Assembly (NCBI GenBank): GCA_017307915.1 | Contig: JAFKGG010000364.1 | Coordinates: 9,980 to 73,979 of the forward strand | Origin: Burkholderiales bacterium | GTDB lineage: Bacteria; Pseudomonadota; Gammaproteobacteria; Burkholderiales; Burkholderiaceae_E | DNA: 64,000 nucleotides | Reading direction: 5' to 3' | In this document: positions 10,122-38,449 of the stretch, one piece after another | Layout: each line of letters opens with the position of its first letter | Position numbering within the stretch: position 1 is the first letter of the stretch | Notes under the pieces: generated by a model | Seen by the model: only the letters and a program-made list of their open reading frames with translations | The model's database searches: none | What the model was told of the DNA's origin: nothing | Translations under genes and position numbers: made by a program

Positions 10122-10170
10122 CCGCCTTAGCGCCGCCTTAGCGCCGCCTTAGCGCCGCCTTGGCGCCGCC
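10122..10170. repeat. Intergenic tandem repeat, 11-bp unit, about 4.5 copies
   Basis: CCGCCTTAGCG x3, CCGCCTTGGCG, CCGCC. Confidence 0.95.
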
Positions 10171-10202
10171 GGTGGGGCCGTCGTCCGTTCGGGCCGGCGC
10201 GT

Positions 10203-11957: not shown

Positions 11958-12161
11958 GGGCTTGCTCCTCGTTTCGGTCCCGTTTGCGCCGGACCTGTCT
12001 CTTGTCATTGGCCACTGCTTGTCGATCAGCACGAATGATAGGCCGACTTCGGCGCACGATCATGCCGACGCGGCAAGATTGACGCGCAAATAGTTCAGAA
12101 CCTGCGGCTGGAGGGCAAAGTTCGCCACGCGGCGGCGAGCCCGCCGCTCAGGCGATCAGGC

Positions 12162-13763: not shown

Positions 13764-13808
13764 GGCACACCTCGGTAGGCATCGGACAGGTTTCGGAATC
13801 GATAGCGT

Positions 13809-14498
13809 TCAGACCGACAGGTACTGCTTGATTCGCGCGACGTCGGTCTGCGCGCGCGCGCTTTCATGGACCAGCCGGCCGCCTTCGATCACGAACAGCC
13901 GGTCGGCGACATCCATCGCAAAACTGAGTACCTGTTCGGAAACGACGATCGTGATCCGGCGCATCTTGCGGATCTCGTTGAGCGCGCGGGCAATGTCCTT
14001 GATGATCGACGGCTGGATGCCCTCGGTGGGCTCGTCCAGCAGCAGCACCTTCGGGTTGGTGACCAGCGCACGCGCGATGGCCAGTTGCTGCTGCTGGCCG
14101 CCCGACAGGTTGCCGCCCCGGCGGCGGCGCATGTCGAACAGCACCGGAAACAGCGCATAGATTTCGTCGGGAATGCGCTTGTCCCTCGCGTTCTCGAGCC
14201 CGGTCTGGATGTTCTCTTCGACGCTCAAGGTCGGAAAGATCATCCTGCCCTGCGGTACGTAGGCCAGCCCCGCCGCAACGCGCCGATAGCTTTCGTCGCG
14301 ACTCAGGTCGCGGCCGGCCACCTCGATGCGGCCCGACTTGACCGGCACGATGCCCATCAAGGTCTTGAACAGCGTCGTCTTGCCCATGCCGTTGCGGCCC
14401 ATGATGGCCACGGTTTCGTTGGCCTCGGCCGCGAATGAAATGCCATGCAGCACTTCGCTCTGGCCGTAGCTGGCGAACAGGTCGGTGACTTTCAGCAT
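13809..14498 (-). CDS. urtE: Urea/amide ABC transporter ATP-binding subunit
   Basis: GRNGMGKT, LSGGQQQQ, LLLDEPTEGIQPSII. Confidence 0.94.
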   Translation of the reverse strand: MLKVTDLFASYGQSEVLHGISFAAEANETVAIMGRNGMGKTTLFKTLMGIVPVKSGRIEVAGRDLSRDESYRRVAAGLAYVPQGRMIFPTLSVEENIQTGLENARDKRIPDEIYALFPVLFDMRRRRGGNLSGGQQQQLAIARALVTNPKVLLLDEPTEGIQPSIIKDIARALNEIRKMRRITIVVSEQVLSFAMDVADRLFVIEGGRLVHESARAQTDVARIKQYLSV

Positions 14499-14525
14499 CG
14501 TTCGGTCCTTCGCTCGCCGGTTCGA

Positions 14526-15269
14526 TCAGTGGCCCAGGTAGACGTCGATCACCTTCGGATCGGCCTGCACTTTTTCCATCGAGCCTTCGGCCAGGATCTT
14601 TCCCTGGTGCATGACGGTGACCTTGTGCGCGATGGCCTTGACGAAGTCCATGTCGTGCTCGATGACGATCATCGAGCGGTTCTGGCAGATGCGCCTGAGC
14701 AGGTCGGCGGTCAGCTCGCGCTCGCGCACGCTCATGCCGGCGATCGGTTCATCGAGCATCAGCAGCTCGGGGTCTTGCATCAGCAGCATGCCGATCTCCA
14801 GCCATTGCTTCTGGCCATGAGACAGCAGACCCGCTTCGGTCTGCAGTGCATCGACCAGGCCGATTTCCTCGGCCACCTGGTGCACGCGCTGCCGAACATC
14901 GTCGGTACACTTGAACGCCAGTGCGCCGAACACGCCGCGCCCGCGCGGGAACGACACCTCCAGGTTCTCGAACACATTCAGGTTCTCGTAGATCGATGGC
15001 GTCTGGAACTTGCGGCCGATGCCGGCACGCACGATCTGGTGCTCGGGCAGCTTGGTAAGCTCCAGATCATTGAAGCGAATGCGGCCGGCGCTGGCGCGCG
15101 TCTTGCCGCAGATCAGGTCCAGCAAGGTGGTCTTGCCGGCGCCGTTCGGGCCGATCACGACGCGCAGCTCGCCCTTGTCGATGTACAGGTTCAGCGCATC
15201 GATGGCCTTGAAACCGTCGAACGAGACGGTGAGGTCTTCGATGGCCAGCACCATGCCGGGGTGGGTCAT
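14526..15269 (-). CDS. urtD: Urea/amide ABC transporter ATP-binding subunit
   Basis: GPNGAGKT, GIGRKFQTP, LSHGQKQWLEIGM, EHDM. Confidence 0.94.
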   Translation of the reverse strand: MTHPGMVLAIEDLTVSFDGFKAIDALNLYIDKGELRVVIGPNGAGKTTLLDLICGKTRASAGRIRFNDLELTKLPEHQIVRAGIGRKFQTPSIYENLNVFENLEVSFPRGRGVFGALAFKCTDDVRQRVHQVAEEIGLVDALQTEAGLLSHGQKQWLEIGMLLMQDPELLMLDEPIAGMSVRERELTADLLRRICQNRSMIVIEHDMDFVKAIAHKVTVMHQGKILAEGSMEKVQADPKVIDVYLGH

Positions 15270-15270
15270 G

Positions 15271-16575
15271 TCAGGCACCTCGCGTCGAAGGCATCGAACC
15301 GATCGGCGGATTGGCACCGGTCGCCGGGCTCGACTGTGCCGCGCCAGCCGATACCGCAGAAACCGCAACCGGTGGCGGCGCAGCCTCGGCGTCAGCCGCA
15401 TTGGCACGCCGCTTCGCCAACCATGGCTTCACGTGCGATTCCCACAGCCCCGCCAACCCATTGGGGAAGGCCATCACCACACCGATGAACAGCGCCGCCA
15501 TCAGGAACAGCCACAGGTCGGGAAAGCTTTCCGAGAAATAGGTCTTGCCGAAGTTCACCAGCAGCGCACCATAGACCGCGCCGACCAGCGACATGCGCCC
15601 GCCCACCGCCGCAAAGATCACCATCTCGATCGACGGCACGATGCCGACGAACGACGGCGACATGAAGCCGACCTGCAGCGTGAACAGCGCGCCGCCGATG
15701 CCGGACAGGGCCGCCGCGAAGCAGAACACGAACACCTTGAACATCGACACGTCGTAGCCGGAAAAGCGCACGCGGTCTTCCTTGTCGCGCATCGCCAGCA
15801 GCAGCGTGCCCAGCTTGCTCTTTTGCACCCAGCGGCACAGCACGATGGCCGCCAGCAGCAGGCCGGCGCAGACGAAATACAGGATGGTGCGCGCGCCGTC
15901 GGTGCGGATGTCCCAGCCCAGCATCGTCTTCAGATCTGTGATGCCGTTGACGCCGCCCGTGTAACCCTGCTGGCCGATGATCAGCACCGACAAGATCAGC
16001 GCCACCGCCTGCGTGATGATCGCGAAATACACGCCGCCCACGCGTCGCTTGAACATCGCGTAGCCGACGATGAAGGCCAGCAGCGCCGGCACCGCCACGA
16101 CGGCGATCAGCGCCAGCGGCAGCGACTTGAACGGTTCCCACCACAGCGGCAGCGCAGTGACCTGGTTCCAGTCCATGAAGTCGGGAATGCCCGGCGTCGA
16201 CTGGATCTTCGTGCTTTCGGGGTCCGAGGCTTCCAGCTTCAGGAACATCGCCATGCAGTAGCCGCCCAGGCCGAAGAAGACGCCCTGACCGAGGCTCAGC
16301 ACGCCGCCGTAGCCCCACAGCATCACCAGGCCGATCGCCACGAAGCCGTAGGTCAGGTACTTGCCGACCAGGTTCAGCCGGAAGACGTCGAGCGTCAGCG
16401 GCAAGACGATAAGGATCACTGCCGCCAGCCCCAGCAGACTGCCGAACTCATGACGCAGCAGCCACTGCCACGGGCCAGGCCGCGCCGGGGCTGCGGCGTC
16501 CATCGTGTGCGGTGCCGCGCCCGGTGCAGGCACGGCGCCGGTTGCCGCGCTTGCGGCCTTGTCGATCGTGCTCAT
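15271..16575 (-). CDS. urtC: Urea/amide ABC transporter permease
   Basis: WGYGGVLSLGQGVFFGLGGY, RDKEDRVRFSGY, AVGGR. Confidence 0.94.
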   Translation of the reverse strand: MSTIDKAASAATGAVPAPGAAPHTMDAAAPARPGPWQWLLRHEFGSLLGLAAVILIVLPLTLDVFRLNLVGKYLTYGFVAIGLVMLWGYGGVLSLGQGVFFGLGGYCMAMFLKLEASDPESTKIQSTPGIPDFMDWNQVTALPLWWEPFKSLPLALIAVVAVPALLAFIVGYAMFKRRVGGVYFAIITQAVALILSVLIIGQQGYTGGVNGITDLKTMLGWDIRTDGARTILYFVCAGLLLAAIVLCRWVQKSKLGTLLLAMRDKEDRVRFSGYDVSMFKVFVFCFAAALSGIGGALFTLQVGFMSPSFVGIVPSIEMVIFAAVGGRMSLVGAVYGALLVNFGKTYFSESFPDLWLFLMAALFIGVVMAFPNGLAGLWESHVKPWLAKRRANAADAEAAPPPVAVSAVSAGAAQSSPATGANPPIGSMPSTRGA

Positions 16576-25630: not shown

Positions 25631-25689
25631 AAGCGTGCCGCCGCGCGCACGTGTCGCGCCGCCATTGCCGTGGGGATCGGAATGTCTCG

Positions 25690-26994
25690 ATGAAAGCGAT
25701 CGTTCTGGGTGCCGGCGTCATCGGCGTCACATCGGCCTATTTTCTGAACCGGCTCGGCTTCGCCGTCACCGTCGTCGACCGTCAGCTCGAACCCGCCGCC
25801 GAAACCAGTTTCGCCAACGGCGGGCAGATCTCGGTCAGCCATGCCGAGCCCTGGGCCAACCCGGCAGCGCCGCTGAAGCTGCTGAAGTGGCTGACCCGCG
25901 CCGATGCGCCGCTGCTGTTCCGGCCGCGCGCCGACCTGCGGCAATGGCTGTGGTGCCTGGCGTTTCTGCGCGAGTGCACGCCGGCGCGCACGCGCGCCAA
26001 CATCGAACGCATCGTGCGGCTCGGCCTGTACAGCCGCGCCACGCTGCAGGCGCTGCGCCACGCTACCGGCATCCATTACGACGAACGCACGCGCGGCATC
26101 CTGCATTTCTATACCGATCCGGCCGAGTTCGCCGCCGCCGCCGGTCCGGCGCGGCTGATGAGCGACTTCGGCTGCGAGCGCCGCATCGTGTCGGCCGACG
26201 AAGCCGTTGCGATCGAACCCGCGCTGCGCCACGTGCACGCGCAACTGGCCGGCGCCACCTACACCGCCGCCGACGAATCGGGCGACGCGCGCCGGTTCAC
26301 GCGCGAACTGGCCGCGCTGTGCCGCGCCAACGGCGTCGAATTCCTGATGGGTCACCACGTGACCGCACTGCGTGCCGAAGGCGGGCGCCTTGCCCACGTC
26401 GAAGCCACCGATGCCGAGGGCCGCTACGTGAAGCTGACGGCCGACCGCTACGTGCTCGCGCTGGGCAGCTACAGCGCCTTGCTGGCCGCGCCGCTCGGCC
26501 TGCGATTGAAGGTCTATCCAGCCAAGGGCTATTCGGTGACGATGCCGGTGGCCGATGCGTCGCTCGCCTACGACGTTTCGCTCACCGACGACGGCTCGAA
26601 GCTGGTGTTCTCGCGGCTGGGCGATCGCCTGCGCATCGCCGGCACCGCCGAGCTGGCCGGCTATGACCGCTCATTGAACATGATGCGCTGCGAAGCCATC
26701 GTGCGCCGCACGCAGCAGCTGTTCCCCGGCGCCGGCGATACCTCGAAGGTGGAATACTGGAGCGGGCTGCGCCCGACCACGCCGTCGAACGTGCCCTACA
26801 TCGGCGCCACCCGCTATGCCAATCTGTTCCTGAACACCGGCCACGGCACGCTGGGCTGGACGCATGCCTGCGGCTCGGGGCGCGCATTGGCCGATCTGAT
26901 GGCCGGACGCGAGCCGGAAGTGGATGTGCTGCGGCGGGCCGACGGTTCGATCGGCGCCGGGCCAAGCCAGATTCAGCGGCGCGCCAGCACCTGA
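25690..26994 (+). CDS. dadA: D-amino acid dehydrogenase (DadA-like)
   Basis: GAGVIG FAD motif, ETSFANGGQIS, PAKGYSVT, GLRPTTP, NTGHGTLGWT. Confidence 0.92.
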   Translation: MKAIVLGAGVIGVTSAYFLNRLGFAVTVVDRQLEPAAETSFANGGQISVSHAEPWANPAAPLKLLKWLTRADAPLLFRPRADLRQWLWCLAFLRECTPARTRANIERIVRLGLYSRATLQALRHATGIHYDERTRGILHFYTDPAEFAAAAGPARLMSDFGCERRIVSADEAVAIEPALRHVHAQLAGATYTAADESGDARRFTRELAALCRANGVEFLMGHHVTALRAEGGRLAHVEATDAEGRYVKLTADRYVLALGSYSALLAAPLGLRLKVYPAKGYSVTMPVADASLAYDVSLTDDGSKLVFSRLGDRLRIAGTAELAGYDRSLNMMRCEAIVRRTQQLFPGAGDTSKVEYWSGLRPTTPSNVPYIGATRYANLFLNTGHGTLGWTHACGSGRALADLMAGREPEVDVLRRADGSIGAGPSQIQRRAST

Positions 26995-27544
26995 GCCCAC
27001 GCCCTAGGGCCCGTTCGCCCAGCGATGCCCATTGTCCGTCGCAATACAGCAGTGGCCGCTGCGCCGAGGAACTGGCCAGCGCACGAACGTCGCCGATCAG
27101 CAAGACATGCGTGCCGGCATCGATGGCCTGGTGCAGCGTGCAATCGAAAGTTGCCGCGGCATCGACCAGGGCGGGCGCGCCCGTCTGCAGCGCGGCCCAC
27201 TGGGCGTGCGCAAAACGGGCCTCGCCCTTGCAGGCGCCGGCGAACCGCGAGGCAATCGCCAACTGCTCATAACGCAATACGTTGACCGCGAAACTGCGCG
27301 CCTTTGCGATCAATGGATAGGCACTGGCCGTCTTGTTGACCGCCACCGCCAGCCGGGGCGGATCGGCCGACAGCGACATCACCGCCGTAGCGGTCAAGCC
27401 GCCCCTGACGCCGTCGGATTGCGCGGTGATCACGCAGACTGCGGCGGCCAAGCGCCGCATGCCGAAGCGAAAACCTTCCGGCGAAAGGTATTGTGCGGCT
27501 TCCTTCGCGGGGTCTCGATCTTCCATCATCGTCATGCCTGCCAT
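26582..27544 (-). CDS. Flavin reductase (HpaC/NtaB-like). Domain ends near 27010; frame lacks a normal stop and runs about 410 bp antisense into dadA
   Basis: FRFGMRRLAAAVCVIT, GLTATAVMSLSADPP, FAVNVL, GTHVLLIG, PLLYCDGQW. Confidence 0.85.
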   Translation of the reverse strand: MAGMTMMEDRDPAKEAAQYLSPEGFRFGMRRLAAAVCVITAQSDGVRGGLTATAVMSLSADPPRLAVAVNKTASAYPLIAKARSFAVNVLRYEQLAIASRFAGACKGEARFAHAQWAALQTGAPALVDAAATFDCTLHQAIDAGTHVLLIGDVRALASSSAQRPLLYCDGQWASLGERALGRGLRCWRAAESGLARRRSNRRPAAAHPLPARVRPSDRPMRAPSRRHASSPACRGRCSGTDWHSGWRRCRARSTAWSGAARSSIPPSRYRRRRGTAAACGARWLRSASCSMSGHSRPARRCRRCAGDRPAARTPASSRRR

Positions 27545-27553
27545 TGCCGATGA

Positions 27554-28864
27554 TCAACTCAGCAAGTTGCCGCGCAGCGTGCTGGCTTCATAGGCGGTTC
27601 GGAACACACCGCGCTTTTGCAGCAGCGGCACCACGTGGTCGACGAAATTCTCGACGCTGTCGGGATTGGTGGTGGGGCTCAGATTGAAACCCAGGCAGCC
27701 GGTTTCCCGCCAGATGCGCTCGATCTCGTCGGCAACCCGTTCGGGCGTGCCGATGATCTGCGGAATCGCCGGCGACAGCGCCCACTTCCTGGCCACTTCG
27801 CGCAAGGTGGCCGGCTCGCCCCGCTCATTGGTCATGGCCGCAGCCATCAGACCGCGCGAACCCTGCGATTCGGCACTGTCGGACAAGGGTTTGTCGGGGT
27901 CATACTGGCTCAGATCGATGCCGAACACGCCCGACATGCGCGCCAGGTTCGCTTCGAGCGGAATGCGCTCGATCAACTGCTGCGCCCGCGCCTTGGCCTC
28001 GGCGTCGGTGCTGCCGACGATGGGCTGCAATCCGAAAATGACCGGCGGCACCGCAACGCCGCAGCGCTGCGCCTCGGCCTTGAACTGCGCCATCACCTTC
28101 TTCATGCCGGCCACGTGGTTCTGGATCGAGAAGATGACTTCAGCATGCTTCATCGCGAACTGGATGCCGCGCCCCGACGAGCCGGCCTGGAACAGCACCG
28201 GACGGCCATGCGGCGAGGACAGCGTGGGGCCCACACCCTTGCACCTGAAATACTTGCCTTCGAAATCGACGAGCTTGATTCGTTCGGGGTCTGCAAACCG
28301 GCCCGATTGCCGGTCCCGCAACACCGCATCGGCCGGCACGCCATCCCATAGCTGGTAGCAGATCTCCATGAACTCGTCGGCCATGTCATAGCGCTCGTCA
28401 TGTTCGATCTGGCGGCCCAGGCCGCAGGCCAGGTGCTCGGCGCGGCTGAAGCCGGAAACGATGTTCCAGCCCACCCGGCCCTTGCTCAGATAGTTCAGCG
28501 TCGAGATGCGACGGCTGGCCAGATAGGGCGACGTGCCATTGGTCGACAGCGTCACGCACAGGCCAAGATGCCGCGTGGCCGCACTCATCACCGCCACCAG
28601 CGGCATCGGATCATGATTGGGCCAGATCACGCCCCATTGCACCGACGGCTTCACGCTGTTCATGTAGACGCCATGGGTCGCCGGGCTGTCGGCAAAGAAC
28701 ACGCCGTCGAAGCAGCCGCGCTCCAGCGTGCGGGCCATGTCCTGCCAATAAGCGTAGTCTTCGAGCCCGTCGAGCTGGCGGTCGGCCGGATCGGCCCAGG
28801 ACATCAAGGTGTGCGTGATGCCGGTGTGAAGCAGCATCTGGAACAGATGGATTTGCGACGACAT
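27554..28864 (-). CDS. NtaA/DszA/SnaA-family FMNH2-dependent monooxygenase
   Basis: FDGVFFADS, GRVGWNIVSG, HDERY..ADEF, LFQAGSSGRG, VVPLLQKRG. Confidence 0.92.
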   Translation of the reverse strand: MSSQIHLFQMLLHTGITHTLMSWADPADRQLDGLEDYAYWQDMARTLERGCFDGVFFADSPATHGVYMNSVKPSVQWGVIWPNHDPMPLVAVMSAATRHLGLCVTLSTNGTSPYLASRRISTLNYLSKGRVGWNIVSGFSRAEHLACGLGRQIEHDERYDMADEFMEICYQLWDGVPADAVLRDRQSGRFADPERIKLVDFEGKYFRCKGVGPTLSSPHGRPVLFQAGSSGRGIQFAMKHAEVIFSIQNHVAGMKKVMAQFKAEAQRCGVAVPPVIFGLQPIVGSTDAEAKARAQQLIERIPLEANLARMSGVFGIDLSQYDPDKPLSDSAESQGSRGLMAAAMTNERGEPATLREVARKWALSPAIPQIIGTPERVADEIERIWRETGCLGFNLSPTTNPDSVENFVDHVVPLLQKRGVFRTAYEASTLRGNLLS

Positions 28865-28909
28865 GCCTGGCCTCCTGCAGCGGCGATGGGCGATACGGCG
28901 CGGCCGCGC

Positions 28910-29863
28910 CTATTGCGGTTGAATGCCTGCGTTGCGGGCCGCTTCGGTCCACAAGTTCAATTGCGCCGCGACGAAATCCGGAAAACTGACGCTGCCCAGA
29001 TTGATCGGATCCAGGCCCAGCAGCTTGAACTTCTCCAGCGTGTCCGGGTCGTTTCTCGCCTTGCGCAGCCGCTCGCGAAGCCAGGTCACCGCCTCGGACG
29101 GCATGTCTTTGGGGCCGCAGACGCCGGCCCAGGCCATCACGTCGATGGCCGGCTTGCCCAGCTCGACCAGCGAAGGCACGTCCGGCAGGCTGATCGAACG
29201 CCTGGGCGCGATCACGGCCAACGCCTTGACCTTGCCGGTTCTGACCATCGGCGCGGTCACGCCGGTGTCGGTCACGCCGAACGACACGCGGTTCTGGGAA
29301 AGATCGTTCAGGCCTTCCTGCGTGGCCTTGTAGGGCACCGGCAGGGCCTTCAGGCCGATGGCCCGGGTCAGCGAAGCCGCCAGCACCTGCGCGGTCGCGT
29401 TCGAATACATGTAGCTGAGCTTGTCCGGATTGGCCGCCGAATGCCTGATCAGCTCGTCGAGCGACGTGAAGCCCAGCTCGGGCGCCGATGACACGACGTA
29501 GGTATAGGAGGCCAGCGGCTCGATGAAAGTGAAATCGCTGGTCGTGTCGTACGGCAAGGATTTCATCAGCGACGTGGCCGCCGAGTTGATCGATGCGCTG
29601 CAGATGCCGATCGTGTAGCCGTCGGCCGGGCTCTTGACCAGCGTGGTGGTGCCGATCACGCCCACCGCGCCCGGAATGTTCCGGATCACGAAGCGGGCCG
29701 AGTGCTCTCTATGGACCACATCGGTGATCACCCGGACGAGCTGGTCGGCACCCGATCCGGGTGCGTATTGAACGATGAAGCTGATCGGCCGCGACGGAAA
29801 TTCCTGGGCCGTCGCGCTCAAGGCCGCGCAACCCAGAAGCAGGGATGAAATCAAGTGGCGCAT
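28910..29863 (-). CDS. Bug/TctC tripartite tricarboxylate transporter substrate-binding protein
   Basis: Signal peptide, FPSRPISFIVQYAPGSGAD, PADGYT, PYKA. Confidence 0.9.
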   Translation of the reverse strand: MRHLISSLLLGCAALSATAQEFPSRPISFIVQYAPGSGADQLVRVITDVVHREHSARFVIRNIPGAVGVIGTTTLVKSPADGYTIGICSASINSAATSLMKSLPYDTTSDFTFIEPLASYTYVVSSAPELGFTSLDELIRHSAANPDKLSYMYSNATAQVLAASLTRAIGLKALPVPYKATQEGLNDLSQNRVSFGVTDTGVTAPMVRTGKVKALAVIAPRRSISLPDVPSLVELGKPAIDVMAWAGVCGPKDMPSEAVTWLRERLRKARNDPDTLEKFKLLGLDPINLGSVSFPDFVAAQLNLWTEAARNAGIQPQ

Positions 29864-29893
29864 GGCAGTCTCCTCGGGTTGATTTTTTGTCTG

Positions 29894-30403
29894 TCACCGG
29901 ATCAGCGATCTCACCCAGTCCTCGCCGATGCCGTTTTCCTTGCAGTGCTTCATGTAGCGATCGAGCCGCAGATAGACGTCGTCGTAGCTCGTCACGTTGC
30001 CCTGCGGATCGAGGTGAATCACGGGCCCGTAGACGTGGAACAGCGCCGTCATGTGCCCGACCTCGGGATCGATGAACAAGGTGTGGATGTGCCCCGCAGG
30101 CTCGTAGACGAAGCTGCCGGGCTTGGCGAGCCAGTCATGCTCGCGATAGCCCCAGGAACCGTCGATGGTCCATGCCGTCACCGCGGCGGCATGCCGGTGC
30201 CGCTGGATGGTTCCCTTGCCCTCGGCCTTCAGCAGGCTGACCCAGCCGCCGTTGGTGACGTCGAACAATACCGGCCGCACCATGCCGCGCAGCGGGTGCT
30301 CGTTGCCGACGTTGGGCAGCGGATACCACTTGCCGTCCATCGTCATCACGTCGGGCAGAAACATCTCGGGCCGCGTGAAAGCAGAGTTCTGAATGTTGAT
30401 CAT
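29894..30403 (-). CDS. Cupin, 2,4'-dihydroxyacetophenone dioxygenase (DAD)-like family
   Basis: RHRH...GSWGYREHDW...YEPAGHIHTL cupin His/Glu metal motifs. Confidence 0.82.
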   Translation of the reverse strand: MINIQNSAFTRPEMFLPDVMTMDGKWYPLPNVGNEHPLRGMVRPVLFDVTNGGWVSLLKAEGKGTIQRHRHAAAVTAWTIDGSWGYREHDWLAKPGSFVYEPAGHIHTLFIDPEVGHMTALFHVYGPVIHLDPQGNVTSYDDVYLRLDRYMKHCKENGIGEDWVRSLIR

Positions 30404-30428
30404 GGTGCCGCTGCTCCATTGCCAGGGT

Positions 30429-31616
30429 TCAAACGAGGCGCTTCGCTCGCCATTCGTCGATTTGCGCTTCGGTGAAGCCCGCCTTCAGCAGGCGTTGCTG
30501 CGTGTCGCGGCCCAGTACGGGCGCGGCGCGATGCACCGTCGGCGGGTCGGAACTGAACCGGATCGGCGCCCGCACCTCGCGCAGGCTGCCGAGCTTGTCG
30601 TGCTGCGTCTCGATGACCAGGCCCGGAATGCGCGCGCTGAAGAAATCCAATGAATCCTTGATGCTCAGCACCGGCGCCGCGATCACCTCATGCCGCGAGA
30701 GAATCGCCAGCCATTCGTCGCGCGGCTTGCTGCCGAAGATCGGCCGCAGCACCTCGGCCAGCGCGGCGCGGTGCTTGACGCGATCCCAGTTCTCCTTGAA
30801 GCGCGCGTCTTCGATCAGATCTAGACGTTCGATGGCAGTGCACAGCTGCCGCCACGATGCCCGGTGAAAGGCGCCGACGACCAGGTACAGGCCATCAGAA
30901 GCCTCGAACGCCTGATAGGGCGCCAGCTGCGGGTGGCCGCTGCCTTGCCGCGTGAAACGCGGGTTGCCGTTCAGCACGCTGACCAGATAGTTCGGCATCA
31001 GCGCGTAGGACGCCTCCAGCAGCGAGACCTGCACGTGCTCGCCGACGCCGGTCTGCTCGCGCTTGAACAGAGCGGCGAGAATGCCGATCGTCGACAGCAT
31101 GGCCGCCGAGGCATCGACCACCGGCGTGCCCGCCTTCGAAGGGCCGCTGTCAGGCTCGCCGGTCACGTCCATCATGCCGGAATAGGCCTGGCCGATGATG
31201 TCGTTGCCGCCGTCTTCCTCCATGCCCTGCGCGCCGCCGAACGCGGTCACCGAGCAATAGACGATGCGCGGATTGATCTTGCTGATCTGCGCATAGTCCA
31301 GTCCCCATTCGGCCATTCGATGCGAGCGGAAATTCTCGATCAGCACGTCGCAGTCGGCGGCCAGCTCACGCACGATGCGCTGGCCGACCTCGGTGCGGAT
31401 GTCGGCCGTGACGCTTTCCTTGCCGCGGTTGATGCCGAGGAAATAGCCGCTTTCGCCCTTGCCCACGTAATCGTCGGTGAAGCGGATCAGATCGCCGCGG
31501 CCCGGCTTTTCGATCTTGATCACCTGCGCGCCCATCTCGCCCAGCAGCATCGCGCTGAACGGCGCGGCCAGCGCAGAGCCCAGATCCAGAATCTTCAAAC
31601 CCGATAGATGTGACAT
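30429..31616 (-). CDS. Class III CoA-transferase
   Basis: AAPFSAMLLGEMGAQVIKIE, NRGKES, ENFR, GTPVVD. Confidence 0.92.
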   Translation of the reverse strand: MSHLSGLKILDLGSALAAPFSAMLLGEMGAQVIKIEKPGRGDLIRFTDDYVGKGESGYFLGINRGKESVTADIRTEVGQRIVRELAADCDVLIENFRSHRMAEWGLDYAQISKINPRIVYCSVTAFGGAQGMEEDGGNDIIGQAYSGMMDVTGEPDSGPSKAGTPVVDASAAMLSTIGILAALFKREQTGVGEHVQVSLLEASYALMPNYLVSVLNGNPRFTRQGSGHPQLAPYQAFEASDGLYLVVGAFHRASWRQLCTAIERLDLIEDARFKENWDRVKHRAALAEVLRPIFGSKPRDEWLAILSRHEVIAAPVLSIKDSLDFFSARIPGLVIETQHDKLGSLREVRAPIRFSSDPPTVHRAAPVLGRDTQQRLLKAGFTEAQIDEWRAKRLV

Positions 31617-31656
31617 GGCGATTCCAGGCGCTCAGGCCAGCGAGACATTGGCGTCA

Positions 31657-32517
31657 TCACGAAGAGAAATGGGCCTTGGCCCGTTGCAGGGCTTCGGCCA
31701 TTCCGTGATCGCGGGCCTGTTTGAGAAAGTTGAACTCTCCATCGCGAAAGTGCAGGTTGCTGGCCCAGGCCCCGACCGCGTTGGCCGTGGCAAAGCCCAT
31801 GCCGATCTGCATCTTTTCCAGCGAAGCGAAGACGACGTGCTTTTCGGCGACGATGGCGTCGCGCATCACCTGCGCGCAAACGCCGGCGGTCTGCGCGACG
31901 CGGGCCGACAGCTCGCCGGCGGGCACCACCTCGTCGACCAGGCCGTAGTCGCTGGCCTGCCGCGCGTTCCACGACAGCCCGAACAGCATCAGCTCCTTGG
32001 CGCGCTTGAGCCCGACCGCGGCCACCAGCAGCGAGATGTCGCCGTCGACCCCGAGATGGCGCCAGCGCGCGTTGTCGAAACGGGCGGTGTCGGCGGCCAG
32101 CACCAGGTCGCAGCACAGCGCCAGATACAGGCCGACTTCCGAACACGCACCCTGCGCCGCCAGCACGGTCACCTTGGGACAGCGCAGCAAGCGCATGTAC
32201 AGCCCGTCGGGGCCCCACCACAACTCGGACAACGCGAGCAGCCGCGCACGCTGGCTAGGCACCTTGCGGGCACGCCCACCCGGTGCGTCGCGAAAGAGGG
32301 TTTCCAGCTCGGCGGGATCGAAGCCGCAGGTCAGATCCTCGCCGGCCCCCTCGATGACGATCACCTTGATGTCATCGTCCATCGAGAACGCCTTGATCGC
32401 CTGCGCCATGGCACGCGCGATCTCGATCGAGATCAGGTTGCCCGAGCCGGCGCGATCGATCGTGATGCGGCCCAGATGCTGGTCGGATTCGCGGCGAATC
32501 CGCAGGTGGCGGGTCAT
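31657..32517 (-). CDS. Crotonase-fold protein, paralog 3 (degenerate)
   Basis: DDDIKVIVIEGAG, PKVTVLAAQGAC, CDLVLAAD, GLKRAKELM, YGLVDEVVP; no canonical Glu pair. Confidence 0.85.
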   Translation of the reverse strand: MTRHLRIRRESDQHLGRITIDRAGSGNLISIEIARAMAQAIKAFSMDDDIKVIVIEGAGEDLTCGFDPAELETLFRDAPGGRARKVPSQRARLLALSELWWGPDGLYMRLLRCPKVTVLAAQGACSEVGLYLALCCDLVLAADTARFDNARWRHLGVDGDISLLVAAVGLKRAKELMLFGLSWNARQASDYGLVDEVVPAGELSARVAQTAGVCAQVMRDAIVAEKHVVFASLEKMQIGMGFATANAVGAWASNLHFRDGEFNFLKQARDHGMAEALQRAKAHFSS

Positions 32518-33221
32518 GATGCGCCCCCGCCGGTCATCACCTGCGCGAACAGGCCGGCCGCATCGAAATCGGTGCCTGCACCCTGCGCATCGAGCAGGGC
32601 TTCGATCTGGATCTTCGACATCGCGATGCCGTCCAGCGGCGTTCTGGCAGCAGCGTGCGCCATCTGCAGGGCAAGCGCGTCGACTGCAGCCACATCCTCG
32701 ATACGGTTGACCAGGCCGCGCTCGCAAGCCTGCCGGGCGCTCCATGGCTGGCCCGCGAGCATCCATGACTTTGCCCGGTTCAGGCGGACAGTCAGCGCGG
32801 CCAATACCAGATTGGCTTCGGGCAGCCGCTCGAACGGGGAACCGAACTCGCTGTCGGCCGCGCACACCGTATGGTCGGAGCACAGCACCAGCATGCTTCC
32901 CGCGTCGTGGCATCGGCCGCGCACCGCGGTGACGACGATCTTCTTGCAGAAAGCCAGGCTCTGATACAGCCCGTTGCAAGCGGCATAGGCAGCGTGCCAC
33001 GCCGCGCCGAACGGCGGCGAGACACAGGCATCGGCGCCGAGCGGCGGCGCGAAGTCGTTTCCCGTCGAGCGCAGCACCAGCGCCTTCACCTCGTCGCTGT
33101 CGGCCAGCTCGACCACGGCATCGCGCAGGGCCGCGGCGAACGCCACGTCATGCCGGCTCAATGCGCCGTAGTCGGTTGCACTGAGCACCGCCACCGGCCC
33201 GTCGCGCTTGACGTCGATCAT
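32514..33221 (-). CDS. Crotonase-fold protein, paralog 2 (strongly degenerate, short)
   Basis: DEVKALVLRSTG, KKIVVTAVRG.C, SDHTVCA, RGLVNRI; FAPPLG replaces the FCAGAD oxyanion motif. Confidence 0.8.
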   Translation of the reverse strand: MIDVKRDGPVAVLSATDYGALSRHDVAFAAALRDAVVELADSDEVKALVLRSTGNDFAPPLGADACVSPPFGAAWHAAYAACNGLYQSLAFCKKIVVTAVRGRCHDAGSMLVLCSDHTVCAADSEFGSPFERLPEANLVLAALTVRLNRAKSWMLAGQPWSARQACERGLVNRIEDVAAVDALALQMAHAAARTPLDGIAMSKIQIEALLDAQGAGTDFDAAGLFAQVMTGGGAS

Positions 33222-34141
33222 GGCGCTGCCTCCGGGCCGGCAGCGGCCTTCGCGGCTATCGCAGCGGCCAGCCTCGCCTTGTCGGCATCCAATGCCCCCC
33301 TGACGCCGGATTGCTTCACCTGCGTCCAGAAGTGCGCCTCATCGTCGGCCGATTGCAGGAAGTGCGAGAACAGCAACCCGCAGATTTCGCGCACGTTCGT
33401 GCCGAAGACCGATTCCGCCAGGCCGGCACGCGTTTTCAGGTAGGCCAGCCGCTGCGCCGGACCATCGGCCAGCCGGCGCGCCAGCGCCTGCACGCCGGCG
33501 GCCAGTTGATCGTCGGGCAGACACTCATGGGCCAGGCCGAGCTTGCAGGCCTCGGGCCCGGTCATCGGCAGGCCGCTGTAGCCGAAGCGGCGGGCGGCCT
33601 TGGTACCCACGATGCGGTTGATGTGCACCGCCGACACGGCGCCGGCCGGACCCAGGAAGCGGGCTTCGAGCGCGCCGATCCTGGCGCTTTCGGAAACCAT
33701 CACCAGATCGCAGCGCGTGCCGATCATGAAGTACGCCGCAGCCGCGCAGTAGCCGTGCAGTTGCAGCAGCGTGACCTTGGTGCTGCGCGTCAACGCCTGG
33801 CTGAAGCCCTGCCGGCCGTAGTTGAGATCGCCGGCGTAGCGATTTGCCATCGACAGCGACATGCGCTTCTGTCCTGGCCTGCGCTGCCCCCAGTCTTCGT
33901 TGATCTCGTTGCCGCTACAGAAGGATTTGCCGTTGCCGGCGATCACGATCACGCGCAGCTCGTCGTCGGCATCGCACTGCCTGAGCAATTCCATCAGACG
34001 CAGCCGCATCGGCACCGTCATCGCGTTGTGCTTCTCGGGCCGGTTCAGCGTGATCCGCGCGATCCGGCCGTCGTCCGAACGTTCGAACAGCACCTGCCCG
34101 GTCGCCCGGGCGATGCTTTCCGGATTGCCGTAGACGTTCAT
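33218..34141 (-). CDS. Crotonase-fold protein, paralog 1
   Basis: ITLNRPEKHNAM, FCSGNE, GALE (one Glu retained), LGLAHE. Confidence 0.88.
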   Translation of the reverse strand: MNVYGNPESIARATGQVLFERSDDGRIARITLNRPEKHNAMTVPMRLRLMELLRQCDADDELRVIVIAGNGKSFCSGNEINEDWGQRRPGQKRMSLSMANRYAGDLNYGRQGFSQALTRSTKVTLLQLHGYCAAAAYFMIGTRCDLVMVSESARIGALEARFLGPAGAVSAVHINRIVGTKAARRFGYSGLPMTGPEACKLGLAHECLPDDQLAAGVQALARRLADGPAQRLAYLKTRAGLAESVFGTNVREICGLLFSHFLQSADDEAHFWTQVKQSGVRGALDADKARLAAAIAAKAAAGPEAAP

Positions 34142-35295
34142 CGAGCGGCTTCCGCCAAAGGCCGCGAGATGATCGTGTCGCCGTCGAGTTCGAACTGCGT
34201 CGCGATCTTCTGCGACGCGGTGATCTTCTTCATGTAGGCCAGCACCTCGAAGAACTCGGGCTCGTCGGTCCTGAGCAGCCGCGGCTGCGATTTCCGGTTG
34301 ATCATCGTCGGCTGCCAGCGCACGCGGGCCAGCTTGCGGTCGCTCACGTCGAGGTGAACGACCAGGCCCTTGCGCGAATCGACCGGGAACGGAAAGGTGG
34401 GATAGTCAGGATCGTGCGTCCAGCCCGGATGCAGCCGCTGCCGGCGTTCGATGCGCTCGGGCTTGTCCAGTTCGCCGGGCTGGTAATACATATCGAACGC
34501 AAAGTTGGCCATGCCGTAGAAGATCGGCCGGCCCTTGTAGATCTCGATCGGCTTCAGGATGTGCTGATGGTGGCCGAGAATGACGTCGGCACCCGCGTCG
34601 ATCGCGGCCTTTGCGTACTTCAGCTCGTAGGTGGCCAGCTCGCCTTCCCGGAAATGCAGGCCCCAGTGCATCGACACGATCACCACGTCGACCTGTTCGC
34701 GCAAGCTGCGGATGTCGGCCAGGATGTTGGCCAGGTCCTCGTCGTGCGGATAGGTCAGGATGCGCGGCGGCGTGCCCGGCTGGTCGGGTTCGAGCGTTTC
34801 GTAGATGGTGCGCGCCCGCGCCGGCGCACAGCCCGGACGATCGACGTCGGCCCAGTAACGGATCGGCAGGATCGAGCAATAGCCCAGCCAGCCGACGCGA
34901 TTGCCGTTGTGCTCGATGATCACCGGCTTGCGCGCCTCGGCCAGGTTGTCGCCGGCACCGAACAGGTGGATGCGATTGGCGCGAAAGTGCGCGATCGTGT
35001 CCTTGAACGCCGAGATGCCGTAATCCATGCAGTGATTGCTGGCAAACGACGCGATGTTGAAACCCGCCCGGCCGATGGCAGCAACGTTTTCCGGATCGCC
35101 GCGCAGCGGCGAAGAAGTGCCGCTGACGTTGACTTCGCCGAGTGTCGAATAGATGGCTTCGATCTGGCCGAAGGCGAGATCTGCCTGCTTCATCTGCGCA
35201 GACACCAGCTCGAAGATCGAGTCGGGCTCGTCCCGGTTGACCGCGATGTCGCCGACGGCAAAGATCCGCGTCGTGGAATTGGGGCGGGTGCTCAT
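34138..35295 (-). CDS. CapA/YwtB-family metallophosphoesterase-fold protein
   Basis: VGDI, DLAFGQIE, ASNHCMDYG, SMHWG, GHHQH, PIFYGMANF. Confidence 0.88.
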   Translation of the reverse strand: MSTRPNSTTRIFAVGDIAVNRDEPDSIFELVSAQMKQADLAFGQIEAIYSTLGEVNVSGTSSPLRGDPENVAAIGRAGFNIASFASNHCMDYGISAFKDTIAHFRANRIHLFGAGDNLAEARKPVIIEHNGNRVGWLGYCSILPIRYWADVDRPGCAPARARTIYETLEPDQPGTPPRILTYPHDEDLANILADIRSLREQVDVVIVSMHWGLHFREGELATYELKYAKAAIDAGADVILGHHQHILKPIEIYKGRPIFYGMANFAFDMYYQPGELDKPERIERRQRLHPGWTHDPDYPTFPFPVDSRKGLVVHLDVSDRKLARVRWQPTMINRKSQPRLLRTDEPEFFEVLAYMKKITASQKIATQFELDGDTIISRPLAEAAR

Positions 35296-35305
35296 GCTCA
35301 GGAAA

Positions 35306-36292
35306 TCACTCGGGTTGGATGTTCGCTTGCTTGACGACGCTGGCCCAGCGCCGGACTTCGGACTGCAGATAGGGATCGAATTCATCCGGACCGGCAGCAA
35401 CGACCCGCATGCCCTCGGCCGCCATGCGCTCGGTCACTTCGGGTTGCGCCAGCACTGCCGCAATGTCCTTCGCAAGCCGGTCGACGATAGGCTTGGGCGT
35501 TCCTGCACGCGTGATGATTCCGTACCAGGTCACCAGCTCGAATCCCTTCAGACCTGATTCGGCGACGGTCGGCAGCTCGGGCCACAACGGCGAACGATTG
35601 GCGCTGGTGATCGCGATCGCCTTGACGCGGCCGGACTTGGCATGCGGCAGGCCCGACAGCAGCGTGGTGAACATGAAATCGACGTCGCCGCGCATCACCG
35701 CCATCAGGGTCGGCGACCCGCCGGCATATGGAACGTGTACGGCGTCGATACCCGCCATCATGTTGAACATCACGCCGCCCAGATGGCCCGGCCCGCCCAG
35801 CCCCGGAGCGCCGAAGTTCAGGCTGCGGGTCTTGCCCAGCGCGATCAGGTCCCGCACGCTGTCAACCTTCAGGTTCGGATTCACGACCAGCAGATTGGGC
35901 GCCTCGACCATGTTGATCACGCCCGCGAAATCCTGCGGGAAGCGATAGGGCAAGGCCTTGCGCACGCTCGGATGCACGGCGTGCGAAGTGATGATGATCG
36001 CGAACGTGTAGCCGTCGGCAGGCGCCATCGTCAGCGCCTGGATGCCGATCGTGGCGTCGGCGCCGGGCTTGTTCTCGACCACCACCGGCTGTTTCCATTG
36101 CTCGGTCAGGCCCTTGCTCAACAGCCGCGCCAGCGAATCCGCGCCGCCGCCCGGCGTCCAGGAAACGATGAACCGGACGGCGTGGCCCGGAAACTCGGCC
36201 GCCCGGCCCAGACGCGGCATGGCGGCCAGCAGCGGCGCGCTCAGCGCGAGCTTGTTGAGGTGTCTGCGCGAGACCGGCATGGCTTTCCTCAT
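35306..36292 (-). CDS. Bug/TctC substrate-binding protein
   Basis: Tat-like SRRHL leader, PGGGAD, VENKPGA, PADGYT, HVPYAGG. Confidence 0.92.
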   Translation of the reverse strand: MRKAMPVSRRHLNKLALSAPLLAAMPRLGRAAEFPGHAVRFIVSWTPGGGADSLARLLSKGLTEQWKQPVVVENKPGADATIGIQALTMAPADGYTFAIIITSHAVHPSVRKALPYRFPQDFAGVINMVEAPNLLVVNPNLKVDSVRDLIALGKTRSLNFGAPGLGGPGHLGGVMFNMMAGIDAVHVPYAGGSPTLMAVMRGDVDFMFTTLLSGLPHAKSGRVKAIAITSANRSPLWPELPTVAESGLKGFELVTWYGIITRAGTPKPIVDRLAKDIAAVLAQPEVTERMAAEGMRVVAAGPDEFDPYLQSEVRRWASVVKQANIQPE

Positions 36293-37479
36293 CCTTCCTG
36301 GCTGACCGGGCCGGCGCGGTGCGGCGCTATCGCCGCGCTCGCCAATCCGCCCAGAATTTCTTGCGTGTGTTCTCCCAGCATCGGCACCTGCCGCCGCGGC
36401 GCGGTGTCCATGCCCGGCATGCGGAACGGTGCGTGCGGCACCAGGTACTCGCCGGCGCCGTCCTGCACCACGGCCATGGTTCCGCGCTGCCGGATCTGCG
36501 GGCTGCCGATGGCTTCGGCAGCGCTCAGATAGCGCGTGCAGGGCACGCCCTCATGCATCAGGCGCGCTTCGCAATCGGCGCCGCTGCGCTCGCGCGTCCA
36601 CTGCTCGATCAGGCTCATCAACTCGGACCAATGCTTCTCGCGCGAAACGGTGTCGACGAATCGCGGGTCTTGCAGCCACTGCGGGCGATCGATCACGCGC
36701 ACCAGCGCCTCGAAGTTCTTCTGGCTGGTCGGGGCGATCACGATGAAGCCGTCGGCGCATTGCAGCGGCGGATAGACGCGGTGCGCGGCCGATGACGGCG
36801 CCTGCGCCTCCTGGCATTCGGCGACCAGGATGTTCAGCATGCCGTCGAGCAGCGCGACGTCGATGTACTGGCCCTCGCCGCTGCGCTGCCGATGCAGCAG
36901 CGCCGCCTGGATCGCAGCGAAGGCCGACATGCCGCCGAACACGTCGGCGGTGTAGGTCGCCGTGTTCTGCGGCTTGCCGCCGCCTTGATATTGCATCTGG
37001 GCAAGATCGAAGCCGCTGGCGGCATGGATGATCGGCGCATACGCGGGCCGCCGCGCGTCGGGCCCATGCTGGCCGAACCCGGAAATCGAGCAATAGACGA
37101 TGTCGGGCTTGATGCGACGCACGGCCTCGTAGCCGATGCCGAGCCGATCAGCGACACCGGGCCGCCAGTTCTCCACCACCACGTCGCTGGTGGCGGCCAG
37201 CGCCAGCGCGGCCTCGATGCCTGCGCTCGACTTCAAGTCGAGCACGATGCTCTTCTTGCCGCAATTGAGATGGCCGAAGAAGCTGCTGTACCCATCGCGT
37301 ACCGGCCTGCGCCCGCGATTGTGGTCGCCGTGTTTGGGTTCGACCTTGATGACTTCGGCGCCGAGATCCGCCAGCAAGCGGGTGCAGTAAGGGCCCGACA
37401 GCATGTTGGTCAGATCAAGGACGCGCATACCCGCGAGCGGGCCCGCCGTTCCTGGCCGGGGCGCAGAAGCGGAACTCAT
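36289..37479 (-). CDS. Class III CoA-transferase
   Basis: LSGPYCTRLLADLGAEVIKVE, NCGKKS, ENWRPG, ATYTAD. Confidence 0.92.
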   Translation of the reverse strand: MSSASAPRPGTAGPLAGMRVLDLTNMLSGPYCTRLLADLGAEVIKVEPKHGDHNRGRRPVRDGYSSFFGHLNCGKKSIVLDLKSSAGIEAALALAATSDVVVENWRPGVADRLGIGYEAVRRIKPDIVYCSISGFGQHGPDARRPAYAPIIHAASGFDLAQMQYQGGGKPQNTATYTADVFGGMSAFAAIQAALLHRQRSGEGQYIDVALLDGMLNILVAECQEAQAPSSAAHRVYPPLQCADGFIVIAPTSQKNFEALVRVIDRPQWLQDPRFVDTVSREKHWSELMSLIEQWTRERSGADCEARLMHEGVPCTRYLSAAEAIGSPQIRQRGTMAVVQDGAGEYLVPHAPFRMPGMDTAPRRQVPMLGEHTQEILGGLASAAIAPHRAGPVSQEG

Positions 37480-37567
37480 CGAATCTCCTCTTGAATTCGA
37501 TGCGACTATGCGCCGCGTATTAATCTACGTAAACTTAAATTATTGGAACAACTATGCTGGTTTGCTA

Positions 37568-38449
37568 ATGAATCTCGGAGGCCGTGAAATCGATGCATTC
37601 CTGGCGCTCGCCGAAACCAAGCGCTTCGCGATCGCCGCGAAACGCTGCCATGTATCGGCCTCGGCTTTCAGCCAGATCATCAGCCGGCTGGAAGAGCAGG
37701 TCGGCGCGCGCCTGTTCGATCGCAACACCCGGCACGTATCGTTGACGCCCGAAGGCGAAGCCTTTTCGCACGGCGCCTATCGCATCGCGACCGAGCTGCG
37801 CGCCACGATCAACGAACTGCGCGAACGCGCTTCATGGCGAACCGGCCGCGTCACCGTGGCGGCAACGCCGTCGCTGGCCACCGACTGGGTGCCGCGGCGC
37901 CTGGCGATCTATCGCAAATCGTTTCCCAGCATCGCTCTTCGGCTGCACGACGTGACGTCGGAGCGCTGCCTCGTCATGATCGACCGCGGCGAAGTCGACT
38001 TCGGCTTCAATGCCCAGCGGGGCACCGATCTGGAATTCGAAAGCCACTTGCTGTTCATGGAACGCTATTACGTTCTATGCCGCAAGACAGACCCGCTGGC
38101 CAGGTTGAAAGAGATCCGGCTGAAAGACCTGAAAGACCGCGAGATCGTGAAGCTGCCGCTCACCGGCAGCGTCTATCCGCAGATGCTGCCGCTGCTGTCG
38201 TCGGCCCAGGTCAGGGACAGCGGCATGGAAGTGGCCAACTTCGGCACGCTCGCGGGACTGGTGGCGGCCGGCTTCGGCCTGGGCATCGTGCCCGAGCATG
38301 CGCTCGAATTGTGCCGGCGGCCCGGCATCGTCGGCGTTCCGATCAATGCCAATCGGGCGACGCGGCCGGTCTACATGATTCGCCGCCGCGGCCGCAGCCT
38401 TTCTGCGGCGGCGCAGGCGATGTGGGAACAGATCGCGAAAGACTTCTGA
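37568..38449 (+). CDS. LysR-family transcriptional regulator, divergent from the 27-37.5 kb operon
   Basis: FLALAETKRFAIAAKRCHVSASAFSQIISRLE...LFDRNTR.V.LT; AT-rich intergenic spacer. Confidence 0.92.
   Translation: MNLGGREIDAFLALAETKRFAIAAKRCHVSASAFSQIISRLEEQVGARLFDRNTRHVSLTPEGEAFSHGAYRIATELRATINELRERASWRTGRVTVAATPSLATDWVPRRLAIYRKSFPSIALRLHDVTSERCLVMIDRGEVDFGFNAQRGTDLEFESHLLFMERYYVLCRKTDPLARLKEIRLKDLKDREIVKLPLTGSVYPQMLPLLSSAQVRDSGMEVANFGTLAGLVAAGFGLGIVPEHALELCRRPGIVGVPINANRATRPVYMIRRRGRSLSAAAQAMWEQIAKDF

Follow-up and report, generated by a model that had tools for sequence, protein, structure and literature searches.

In the Escherichia coli Cai system for carnitine and crotonobetaine, the class III transferase CaiB shuttles CoA without ATP, coupled to a crotonase, CaiD, whose substrate is the CoA ester of the imported acid; neither a thiolase nor a dehydrogenase is needed. 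The 3,3'-thiodipropionate (TDP) cluster of Variovorax paradoxus TBEA6 (VPARA_05510/05520/05530, act, mdo and acdA) devotes adjacent crotonase-family genes to a single acid, with a class III CoA-transferase and a CoA-ester intermediate in a Burkholderiales host (PMC6370202). Here we analyze an eleven-gene predicted operon with a divergent LysR-type regulator that shares these features with both systems. It lies in a 64,000-nucleotide stretch of DNA from a Burkholderiales bacterium (GenBank assembly GCA_017307915.1, contig JAFKGG010000364.1, positions 9,980–73,979), hereafter the window; all coordinates are counted from its first letter.

Single proteins of the operon also recall characterized enzymes. 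Its CapA-like protein shares Pfam family PF09587 (PGA_cap) with MslH and PgsA/CapA, matches the MslH fold over its full length and conserves equivalents of several of the metal-site and dyad residues. Its cupin carries the three iron-binding histidines and the invariant tyrosine of the 2,4'-dihydroxyacetophenone dioxygenases (DAD) of Alcaligenes sp. 4HAP and Burkholderia sp. AZ11. In common with DmoAB, NtaAB, EmoAB, DszA and LadA, its luciferase-like monooxygenase (LLM) scores above the TIGR03860 cut-off and is followed immediately by a flavin-reductase gene.

The locus nevertheless departs from each of these precedents. Unlike Cai, it encodes two transferases, three divergent and ordered crotonases, a PGA_cap enzyme, binding proteins of the tripartite tricarboxylate transporter (TTT) type and an oxygenase module, and the CaiB equivalog model scores its transferases at 100–115 bits against a cut-off of 413. 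The TBEA6 cluster, compared by its described gene content, differs in its hydrolase-type crotonase, CaiD, acyl-CoA dehydrogenases and desulfinase, and CapA-like, cupin and LLM genes are unreported for it. Since the equivalog models fail and the TBEA6 gene content differs, the operon is assigned to neither the Cai nor the TDP system. Unlike MslH and PgsA, the CapA-like protein has no membrane anchor and no capB/capC or lasso-peptide genes beside it; its partners are CoA-transferases and crotonases. The cupin differs from DAD in four pocket residues and in its pairing with a two-component flavin monooxygenase and a Bug protein. The LLM scores below every equivalog cut-off, and a conserved pairing with a DAD-like cupin is undescribed for any of the two-component NtaA/DmoA-family enzymes. 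Literature searches returned no paper on PGA_cap/CapA with a CoA-transferase, on DAD with an NtaA-type monooxygenase or flavin reductase, or on a crotonase heterotrimer with a CoA-transferase, and all NCBIfam equivalogs scored far below their cut-offs. An initial reading of the DNA, made from its letters alone (the sequence-only reading), had found no described pathway to match, and that judgment stands.

Results and Discussion

The comparisons show an accessory, horizontally acquired, LysR-controlled catabolic operon composed of three modules; our account of it, held with moderate confidence, has it work on an imported acid by a six-step route. Two TTT binding proteins would import two related carboxylic acids. 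The oxygenase module would then trim the precursor oxidatively, the monooxygenase hydroxylating a carbon adjacent to a carbonyl or heteroatom and the cupin cleaving the resulting α-hydroxy-carbonyl C–C bond to leave a shorter acid. The CapA-like enzyme would invert the α-stereocenter of the free acid by metal-assisted acid/base chemistry of the MslH/PgsA type or, less likely, hydrolyze a conjugate. A CoA-transferase would load CoA from a donor thioester without ATP, and the crotonase trio would hydrate, β-eliminate or decarboxylate the CoA ester; crotonase 1 probably carries out the catalysis, with crotonases 2 and 3 probably acting as partner subunits or having new active sites. The second transferase would pass the CoA on, in a Cai-like shuttle. 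Our best guess for the substrate is a substituted or branched (oxo-)dicarboxylic acid.

Gene Order and Modules

The listing of open reading frames (ORFs) and the Pfam and NCBIfam scans of the window place all eleven genes on the minus strand, in the families first named: class III CoA-transferase A (CoAT_A), Bug protein A (BugA), the CapA-like protein, crotonases 1–3 (ECH1–ECH3), CoAT_B, the cupin, BugB, the LLM and the flavin reductase. ATGA overlaps link CoAT_A/BugA, CapA/ECH1, ECH1/ECH2 and ECH2/ECH3, and the remaining intergenic gaps are 9–45 bp. The scans found no CoA ligase, thiolase or acyl-CoA dehydrogenase among the eleven genes. The sequence-only reading had described just such a one-strand string behind a divergent LysR gene, packed with 4-bp overlaps and gaps of at most about 45 bp and driven by CoA-transferases without these three enzymes, and its account of the layout was borne out.

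The CapA-like protein was searched against species-representative genomes, and all operon proteins were then located by tblastn. About ten further metagenome contigs of Burkholderiales carry collinear orthologues with 50–85% identity. The order LysR/CoAT_A/Bug/CapA/ECH1/ECH2/ECH3/CoAT_B is found in three Ramlibacter metagenome-assembled genomes (MAGs; loci L001, L002 and L004), two of which (L002 and L004) keep the full eleven-gene string. The same core with CoAT_B moved upstream occurs in L005–L009 and L057, and L015 is a partial copy. These collinear orthologues, together with a conserved LysR/operon control region, show that the gene order is not a random mosaic, which the earlier reading had named as an outcome that would count against it. 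In L057, the core cluster has three transferases and is followed (12577–16291) by a hydantoinase A/B pair of the oxoprolinase/ketone-carboxylase family and a peptide-type ATP-binding cassette (ABC) importer. The module junctions ECH3/CoAT_B/cupin, CoAT_B/cupin/BugB and BugB/LLM/reductase are each spanned by independent sludge-DNA contigs, which rules out an assembly chimera at these points.

Comparison of the loci shows the predicted operon to be made of three separately conserved modules and not one indivisible pathway. Module A comprises the LysR regulator, a Bug protein, the CapA-like protein and one or more class III CoA-transferases. Module B is the ordered trio of atypical crotonases, which stands beside a class III CoA-transferase in every locus examined, and module C comprises the DAD-like cupin, a Bug protein, the NtaA/DmoA-family monooxygenase and the flavin reductase. 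One genome (G426) carries LysR–Bug–CapA–CoAT_B alone, followed by the housekeeping genes dus and purH (L003); a separate contig of this genome has cupin–Bug–LLM (83/68/78% identity) with a different class III transferase after it (L045). In L049, the neighbors of cupin–LLM–reductase are genes for a tannase-like esterase, a cyclase-family hydrolase, a transferase and an acyl-CoA dehydrogenase. Genomes G425 and G427 contain core and trio; an LLM orthologue was found in neither. CoAT_B accompanies the CapA-like gene and the crotonase trio in L003, L052, L058 and L050, and BugB accompanies the cupin and LLM genes in L002, L004 and L045.

The sequence-only reading had proposed one complete, dedicated linear route for a heteroatom-bearing xenobiotic acid, running through uptake, hydrolysis by the CapA-like protein, C–N or C–S cleavage, CoA activation and C–C cleavage by the cupin. 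The tight packing of eleven genes in one string, its retention in the two Ramlibacter MAGs, the recurrence of the sequence in sludge and bioreactor metagenomes, and the C–N and C–S cleavage known for NtaA-family enzymes (the nearest structure being DmoA) are consistent with such a route. It is opposed by the separation of the modules within one genome (L003 vs. L045), by the absence of the oxygenase module from most core loci, by actinobacterial clusters that hold the trio without CapA or oxygenases, and by the relatives of the CapA-like protein, which are epimerases and not hydrolases. We consider the linear route improbable, and the claim of a single complete pathway is not supported, the set splitting into three modules that occur apart in other genomes.

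The separability of the modules would also suit a juxtaposition of two or three unrelated catabolic cassettes behind one promoter, with no shared function. This genome is so rich in Bug, transferase and crotonase genes that the mix of families means little by itself, and at least 287 Bug and about 90 class III transferase candidates make such neighbors common. Against a chance assembly, the modules are linked more than once. The cupin and LLM genes lie near trio–CoAT–PGA_cap in two architectures, that of the window and that of L058, where the cupin (71%) and LLM (49%) are 6–8 kb from ECH1-3–CoAT–PGA_cap and an ABC importer replaces the Bug protein. The trio, a transferase and PGA_cap occur together in three architectures, including a paralogous set in G426 with 36–50% identity (L050; CoAT–ECH1–ECH2–ECH3–acyl-CoA synthetase, nucleoside diphosphate (NDP)-forming, and, further on, a CapA-like gene). 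We therefore regard unrelated cassettes as very unlikely. In L050 (4673–6045), the NDP-forming acyl-CoA synthetase gene is followed by genes for a 356-aa protein without a Pfam match and a small UGSC-family protein.

Lateral Origin

The operon adjoins a convergent dadA-like gene of the DAO family (25687–26994), which marks the edge of the putative acquired island. Orthologues of this gene with 69–85% identity are present in 27 of 30 same-genus genomes, and in no related locus is the dadA-like gene part of the conserved cluster. None of 24 same-genus genomes has an orthologue of the CapA-like gene above 42% identity. Because dadA is conserved in the genus and the CapA-like gene is not, the operon is, judged by gene distribution, a rare island, gained laterally and inserted next to a core gene. 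Orthologues of the cupin and of crotonase 3 were each detected in at most two of 401 genomes of the family that contains Ramlibacter, in surveys of limited sensitivity; the family-level surveys scored six crotonase candidates per genome, and the rarity of the trio is accordingly a soft statement. An order-level survey, with at most ten genomes per family and thus of little weight, found no close orthologue. Mis-binning of the contig was considered and is ruled out by the dadA orthologues in the 27 genomes.

Crotonase Trio and CoA-Transferases

The three crotonase genes encode ECH1 (307 aa; 33218–34141; PF00378 (ECH_1), E = 3.5e-28), the short and degenerate ECH2 (235 aa; 32514–33221; E = 2.4e-14) and the atypical ECH3 (286 aa; 31657–32517; E = 1.4e-23). 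Glutamate and oxyanion positions were assigned by motif alignment with the rat enzyme. Crotonase 1 has an FCSG oxyanion-type motif and a single glutamate (GALE), invariant in 16 orthologues. Neither canonical glutamate position is occupied in crotonase 2, which has invariant residues of its own across phyla, or in crotonase 3, which has invariant RW, GV.GD and GEFN motifs. Each paralogue thus carries its own set of invariant residues (16–17 orthologues per paralogue, across phyla). A canonical enoyl-CoA hydratase has both catalytic glutamates; none of the three does, and crotonase 1 keeps the second only. All three are consequently placed in the PF00378 superfamily and not among the canonical hydratases, and crotonase 1 is probably the catalytic subunit.

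The class III transferases CoAT_A (36289–37479; PF02515, E = 2.5e-108) and CoAT_B (30429–31616; E = 7.5e-114) match PF02515 over the whole profile, at 363 and 381 bits, respectively. Both fall far below the NCBIfam cut-offs of the formyl-CoA, succinate–glutarate, mesaconate, oxalate and carnitine equivalogs. Among solved structures, CoAT_A is closest to formyl-CoA transferase, YfdE and SUGCT, and CoAT_B to SUGCT (E = 1.3e-67). Searches of PDB sequences with the transferases, crotonases and Bug proteins gave generic relatives only and no hint of a substrate.

The trio with a CoA-transferase recurs at 38–60% identity in L050, L052, L058 and the actinobacterial-type loci L051 and L054–L056. In every locus looked up, proteins of about 304, 235 and 290 aa are encoded in this order directly beside a class III transferase. 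The trio proteins of the actinobacterial-type clusters are 44–58% identical to those of the window, and none of these clusters has PGA_cap. Given that the trio stands beside a transferase in every locus, including the actinobacterial-type ones that lack PGA_cap, the most deeply conserved unit is, as predicted from these alignments, the class III transferase plus the trio. Relatives of crotonase 3 form 218 clusters at E ≤ 1e-20, almost all of them metagenomic.

A hetero-oligomer of the crotonases is plausible. A further-reaching possibility is that the trio is an obligate hetero-oligomer, with one catalytic and two re-purposed subunits, which would form with the class III CoA-transferase an unrecognized enzyme unit extending from Burkholderiales to Actinobacteria. 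In Proteobacteria, a cytoplasmic PGA_cap epimerase would supply this unit, and the CapA/MslH fold would thereby have its first catabolic role, on small acids and not on peptides. We regard this whole chain as unlikely, and put it forward as speculation.

In L051 and L054–L056, the strongly conserved clusters (about 4800–12000 in each) consist of MarR, an NDP-forming acyl-CoA synthetase, a class III transferase, the trio, a 186-aa protein and a SnoaL-like protein. On their flanks are P450 and alcohol dehydrogenase genes, two of each, along with a MimR-like activator, a glyoxalase-fold gene and an enone-reductase-like gene. We know of no described pathway for this type of cluster.

Oxygenase Module

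The cupin (29894–30403; Cupin_7), a predicted non-heme-iron protein, aligns over its full length with DAD (PDB 4p9g and 5bpx; 4p9g, E = 5e-24). The iron ligands, the invariant Tyr93 and a hydrophobic aryl pocket are described for DAD (PMC4219425). H69, H71 and H107 of the cupin align with the ligands H76, H78 and H114, and Y86 with Y93. The pocket residues W137, F148, Y153 and M156 of DAD are H130, D141, R146 and R149 in the window cupin. With His, Asp, Arg and Arg in place of four hydrophobic residues, the pocket is unlikely to take an aromatic substrate and fits a charged, non-aromatic one.

The LLM (27554–28864), a member of the NtaA/DmoA family of FMNH2-dependent monooxygenases, scores 436.4 bits with TIGR03860 (cut-off 279.7) and falls below the cut-offs of the SsuD, SfnG and RutA equivalogs; the flavin-reductase gene begins 9 bp downstream. 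Its nearest solved structure is the dimethyl sulfide (DMS) monooxygenase DmoA (6ak1, E = 2.8e-88), followed by HcbA1, LadA, DszA and RcaE, with NtaA and EmoA further away. Heteroatom cleavage by the monooxygenase and α-hydroxyketone cleavage by the cupin, as put forward in the sequence-only reading, are inferences. The cupin and LLM genes recur as a pair, often beside a transferase and once among Baeyer–Villiger enzymes, and this pairing, with or without the reductase, suggests that hydroxylation at a position adjoining a carbonyl or heteroatom precedes dioxygenolytic C–C cleavage. The last-named locus (L046:292-12200) holds a paralogous cupin–LLM pair (69/68%) between two genes resembling Baeyer–Villiger and flavin-containing monooxygenases, with a TetR regulator, a short-chain dehydrogenase/reductase and a Liv-type ABC transporter; its context points to ketone or ester chemistry for the pair.

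The kinship with DmoA raises the question of a thioether acid, degraded in a manner akin to TDP either by DmoA-like C–S cleavage or by crotonase-catalyzed β-elimination of a thiol from the CoA ester. To degrade TDP, V. paradoxus TBEA6 depends on a class III transferase and on three crotonase-family genes that lie side by side, and its Ech-20 binds TDP-CoA (PMC6370202); the nearest solved relative of the LLM being a DMS monooxygenase fits the same picture. The TBEA6 trio, however, consists of a protein resembling 3-hydroxyisobutyryl-CoA hydrolase and two hydratases, and is set with CaiD among acyl-CoA dehydrogenases; no CapA-like gene is reported for that cluster. Moreover, none of the best 120 relatives of crotonase 3 is a Variovorax-named protein, and the operon cupin is DAD-like and not a thiol dioxygenase. 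Thioether-acid catabolism is, in our estimate, decidedly improbable.

The CapA-like Protein

The CapA-like gene (34138–35295) encodes a predicted cytoplasmic metalloenzyme, a candidate epimerase, that matches PF09587 at 211.9 bits (cut-off 27; E = 1.4e-62) across profile positions 2–254 of 255. A hydrophobic N terminus is absent, as is the membrane anchor of poly-γ-glutamate synthetase; the capB/capC partners of that synthetase are likewise lacking, and the neighbors are catabolic genes. CapC (PF14102) gave no match in the 94%-complete genome, whereas the Bacillus subtilis control was matched. The sole solved sequence relatives are MslH entries (E = 8.5e-16), and an AlphaFold2 (AF2) model (pLDDT 88, pTM 0.90) superimposes on MslH over the full length (TM 0.78–0.80, E = 7e-28); the next folds, YmdB-like phosphatases, reach TM 0.46. 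An Atlas look-up returned "CapA family protein" clusters only, and the NCBIfam MslH equivalog scored 86 bits against a cut-off of 700.

MslH, a lasso-peptide epimerase, works at Cα in a Ca-dependent manner; its dyads are H88/D91 and H295/D11, and its metal ligands E44, N87, H259 and H261 (PMC10406935). N87, H88, D91, H210 and H245 of the CapA-like protein align with N87, H88, D91, H259 and H295 of MslH and are invariant in 38 homologues of 32–84% identity. D16 and E46 are also invariant (19–38 homologues), and match MslH at the level of motifs only. PgsA, from which the family takes its name, sets the D/L ratio of poly-γ-glutamate, which is 75/25 with pgsA and 5/95 without it (PMC6029982).

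Distant CapA-like genes (35–47%) adjoin MmgE/PrpD, CoA mutase and peptide or amino-acid binding proteins, and also a class III transferase with two 2-hydroxyacyl-CoA-dehydratase-like genes. All of these partners are stereospecific enzymes, either (de)hydratases or isomerases, that act on carboxylic acids, and for this reason we rate an epimerase role above a hydrolase role; on sequence and model, epimerization appears at least as likely. The hydrolysis assigned to this protein in the first reading is not favored, its characterized relatives MslH and PgsA being tied to Cα epimerization and the model matching MslH over its full length. One Chloroflexi contig (L011 and L014) carries at least five or six tandem CapA-like paralogues, 37–46% identical to the window protein.

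What the characterized PGA_cap members act upon could also hint at the substrate. Both act on N-acylated residues with a free α-carboxylate (PMC10406935, PMC6029982), and an N-substituted amino-dicarboxylate (an aminopolycarboxylate, or a compound of the iminodisuccinate or γ-glutamyl type) can be envisaged. PGA_cap would epimerize its α-carbon, the distal carboxylate would be CoA-activated, a crotonase would β-eliminate the amine, and the NtaA-family enzyme would cleave carboxymethyl arms. Distant CapA-like genes beside peptide/amino-acid ABC binding proteins, an S15 peptidase and MmgE/PrpD genes agree with such a substrate, as do the membership of the monooxygenase in the NtaA family and the wastewater habitat. 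The scheme leaves the cupin without a role, though, and DmoA, LadA and DszA are closer relatives of the LLM than NtaA or EmoA. The actinobacterial contexts of the trio (P450s, dehydrogenases and the enone-reductase-like gene) point instead to hydrocarbon-derived acids, and we give an amino-dicarboxylate very little credence.

Assessment and Significance

Several observations weigh against the three-module, six-step route that we prefer. Module C is missing from most core loci and may serve an unrelated substrate. The LLM is closest to the C–S-cleaving DmoA and not to a ketone hydroxylase, and the flavin-reductase gene has a 3'-end frameshift in the window. The MslH ligand H261 aligns with G212 in the CapA-like protein, an additional invariant H243 could support a different, hydrolytic metal site, and the epimerase view draws on two characterized relatives of about 21% identity. 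A complex predicted for crotonases 1, 3 and 2 scored 0.68, compared with 0.65 for a control in which chain 1 was replaced, and so speaks neither for nor against a heteromer. Finally, contigs of two metatranscriptomic libraries match pieces of most genes at 95–100%, which is weak evidence of transcription, as DNA carry-over may account for the matches.

The operon is an enzyme-discovery lead that holds an uncharacterized cross-phylum enzyme unit, and represents neither a solved pathway nor a wholly new kind of pathway. The preferred route, if true, would give a function to stand-alone cytoplasmic CapA-like proteins, which are common beside acid-catabolic genes, to the cross-phylum crotonase trio paired with a class III CoA-transferase, and to the DAD-like cupin that repeatedly accompanies a two-component flavin monooxygenase. 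Metagenomes from at least 12 studies, of bioreactor, sludge, soil, aquatic, biofilm and compost origin, contain near-identical DNA. Because the sequence is so widespread in sludge, bioreactor, soil and biofilm metagenomes, the substrate is probably a common natural or man-made acid, for which the binding proteins and the regulator could serve as sensors.

Control Region and Operon Ends

The LysR-type regulator (37568–38449, plus strand; Pfam HTH_1 and LysR_substrate) is divergent from the operon. Its start was chosen by the position of the HTH domain and by a conserved block in alignment A1, and is most likely the ATGAATC at 37568. Divergent LysR orthologues with 60–72% identity adjoin the operon in L001–L004 and L015. 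In the AT-rich spacer between the regulator and CoAT_A (37480–37567), six loci share a conserved block of about 50 bp (alignment A1), and a σ70-like −35/−10 pair on the minus strand (37568–37539) faces the operon. The spacer is a candidate for both the LysR operator and the operon promoter.

At the other end, the sequence-only reading had closed the operon at 27004. In the window, the TAG at 27006–27004 is out of frame with the flavin-reductase gene, and the ORF (26582–27544; PF01613, E = 7e-37; domain at residues 29–174) runs past the expected stop to 26582 and reaches into the convergent dadA gene by 140 codons. In two contigs, one of activated-sludge DNA and one from a biofilm RNA library, 11 extra bases behind 27007 put this TAG in frame. 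The window has a 3'-terminal deletion in the flavin-reductase gene, either a strain-level indel or an assembly error, that leaves the reductase domain intact.

Uptake Proteins

BugA (35306–36292; PF03401, E = 4e-58) has a twin-arginine-like leader and BugB (28910–29863; E = 2.9e-43) a Sec-type leader. Both qualify as Bug/TctC periplasmic uptake proteins, being PF03401 members with leaders in a genome with six TctA genes, none of them within the operon. Orphan Bug genes usually lack TctA/TctB in the same operon. The nearest solved structure to BugA is Bug27. The operon is one of hundreds of orphan Bug-linked catabolic operons in the genome (G000), where the TctC candidates (at least 287, of which 150 were scored, all far above cut-off) beside six TctA genes amount to an extreme expansion of orphan binding proteins.

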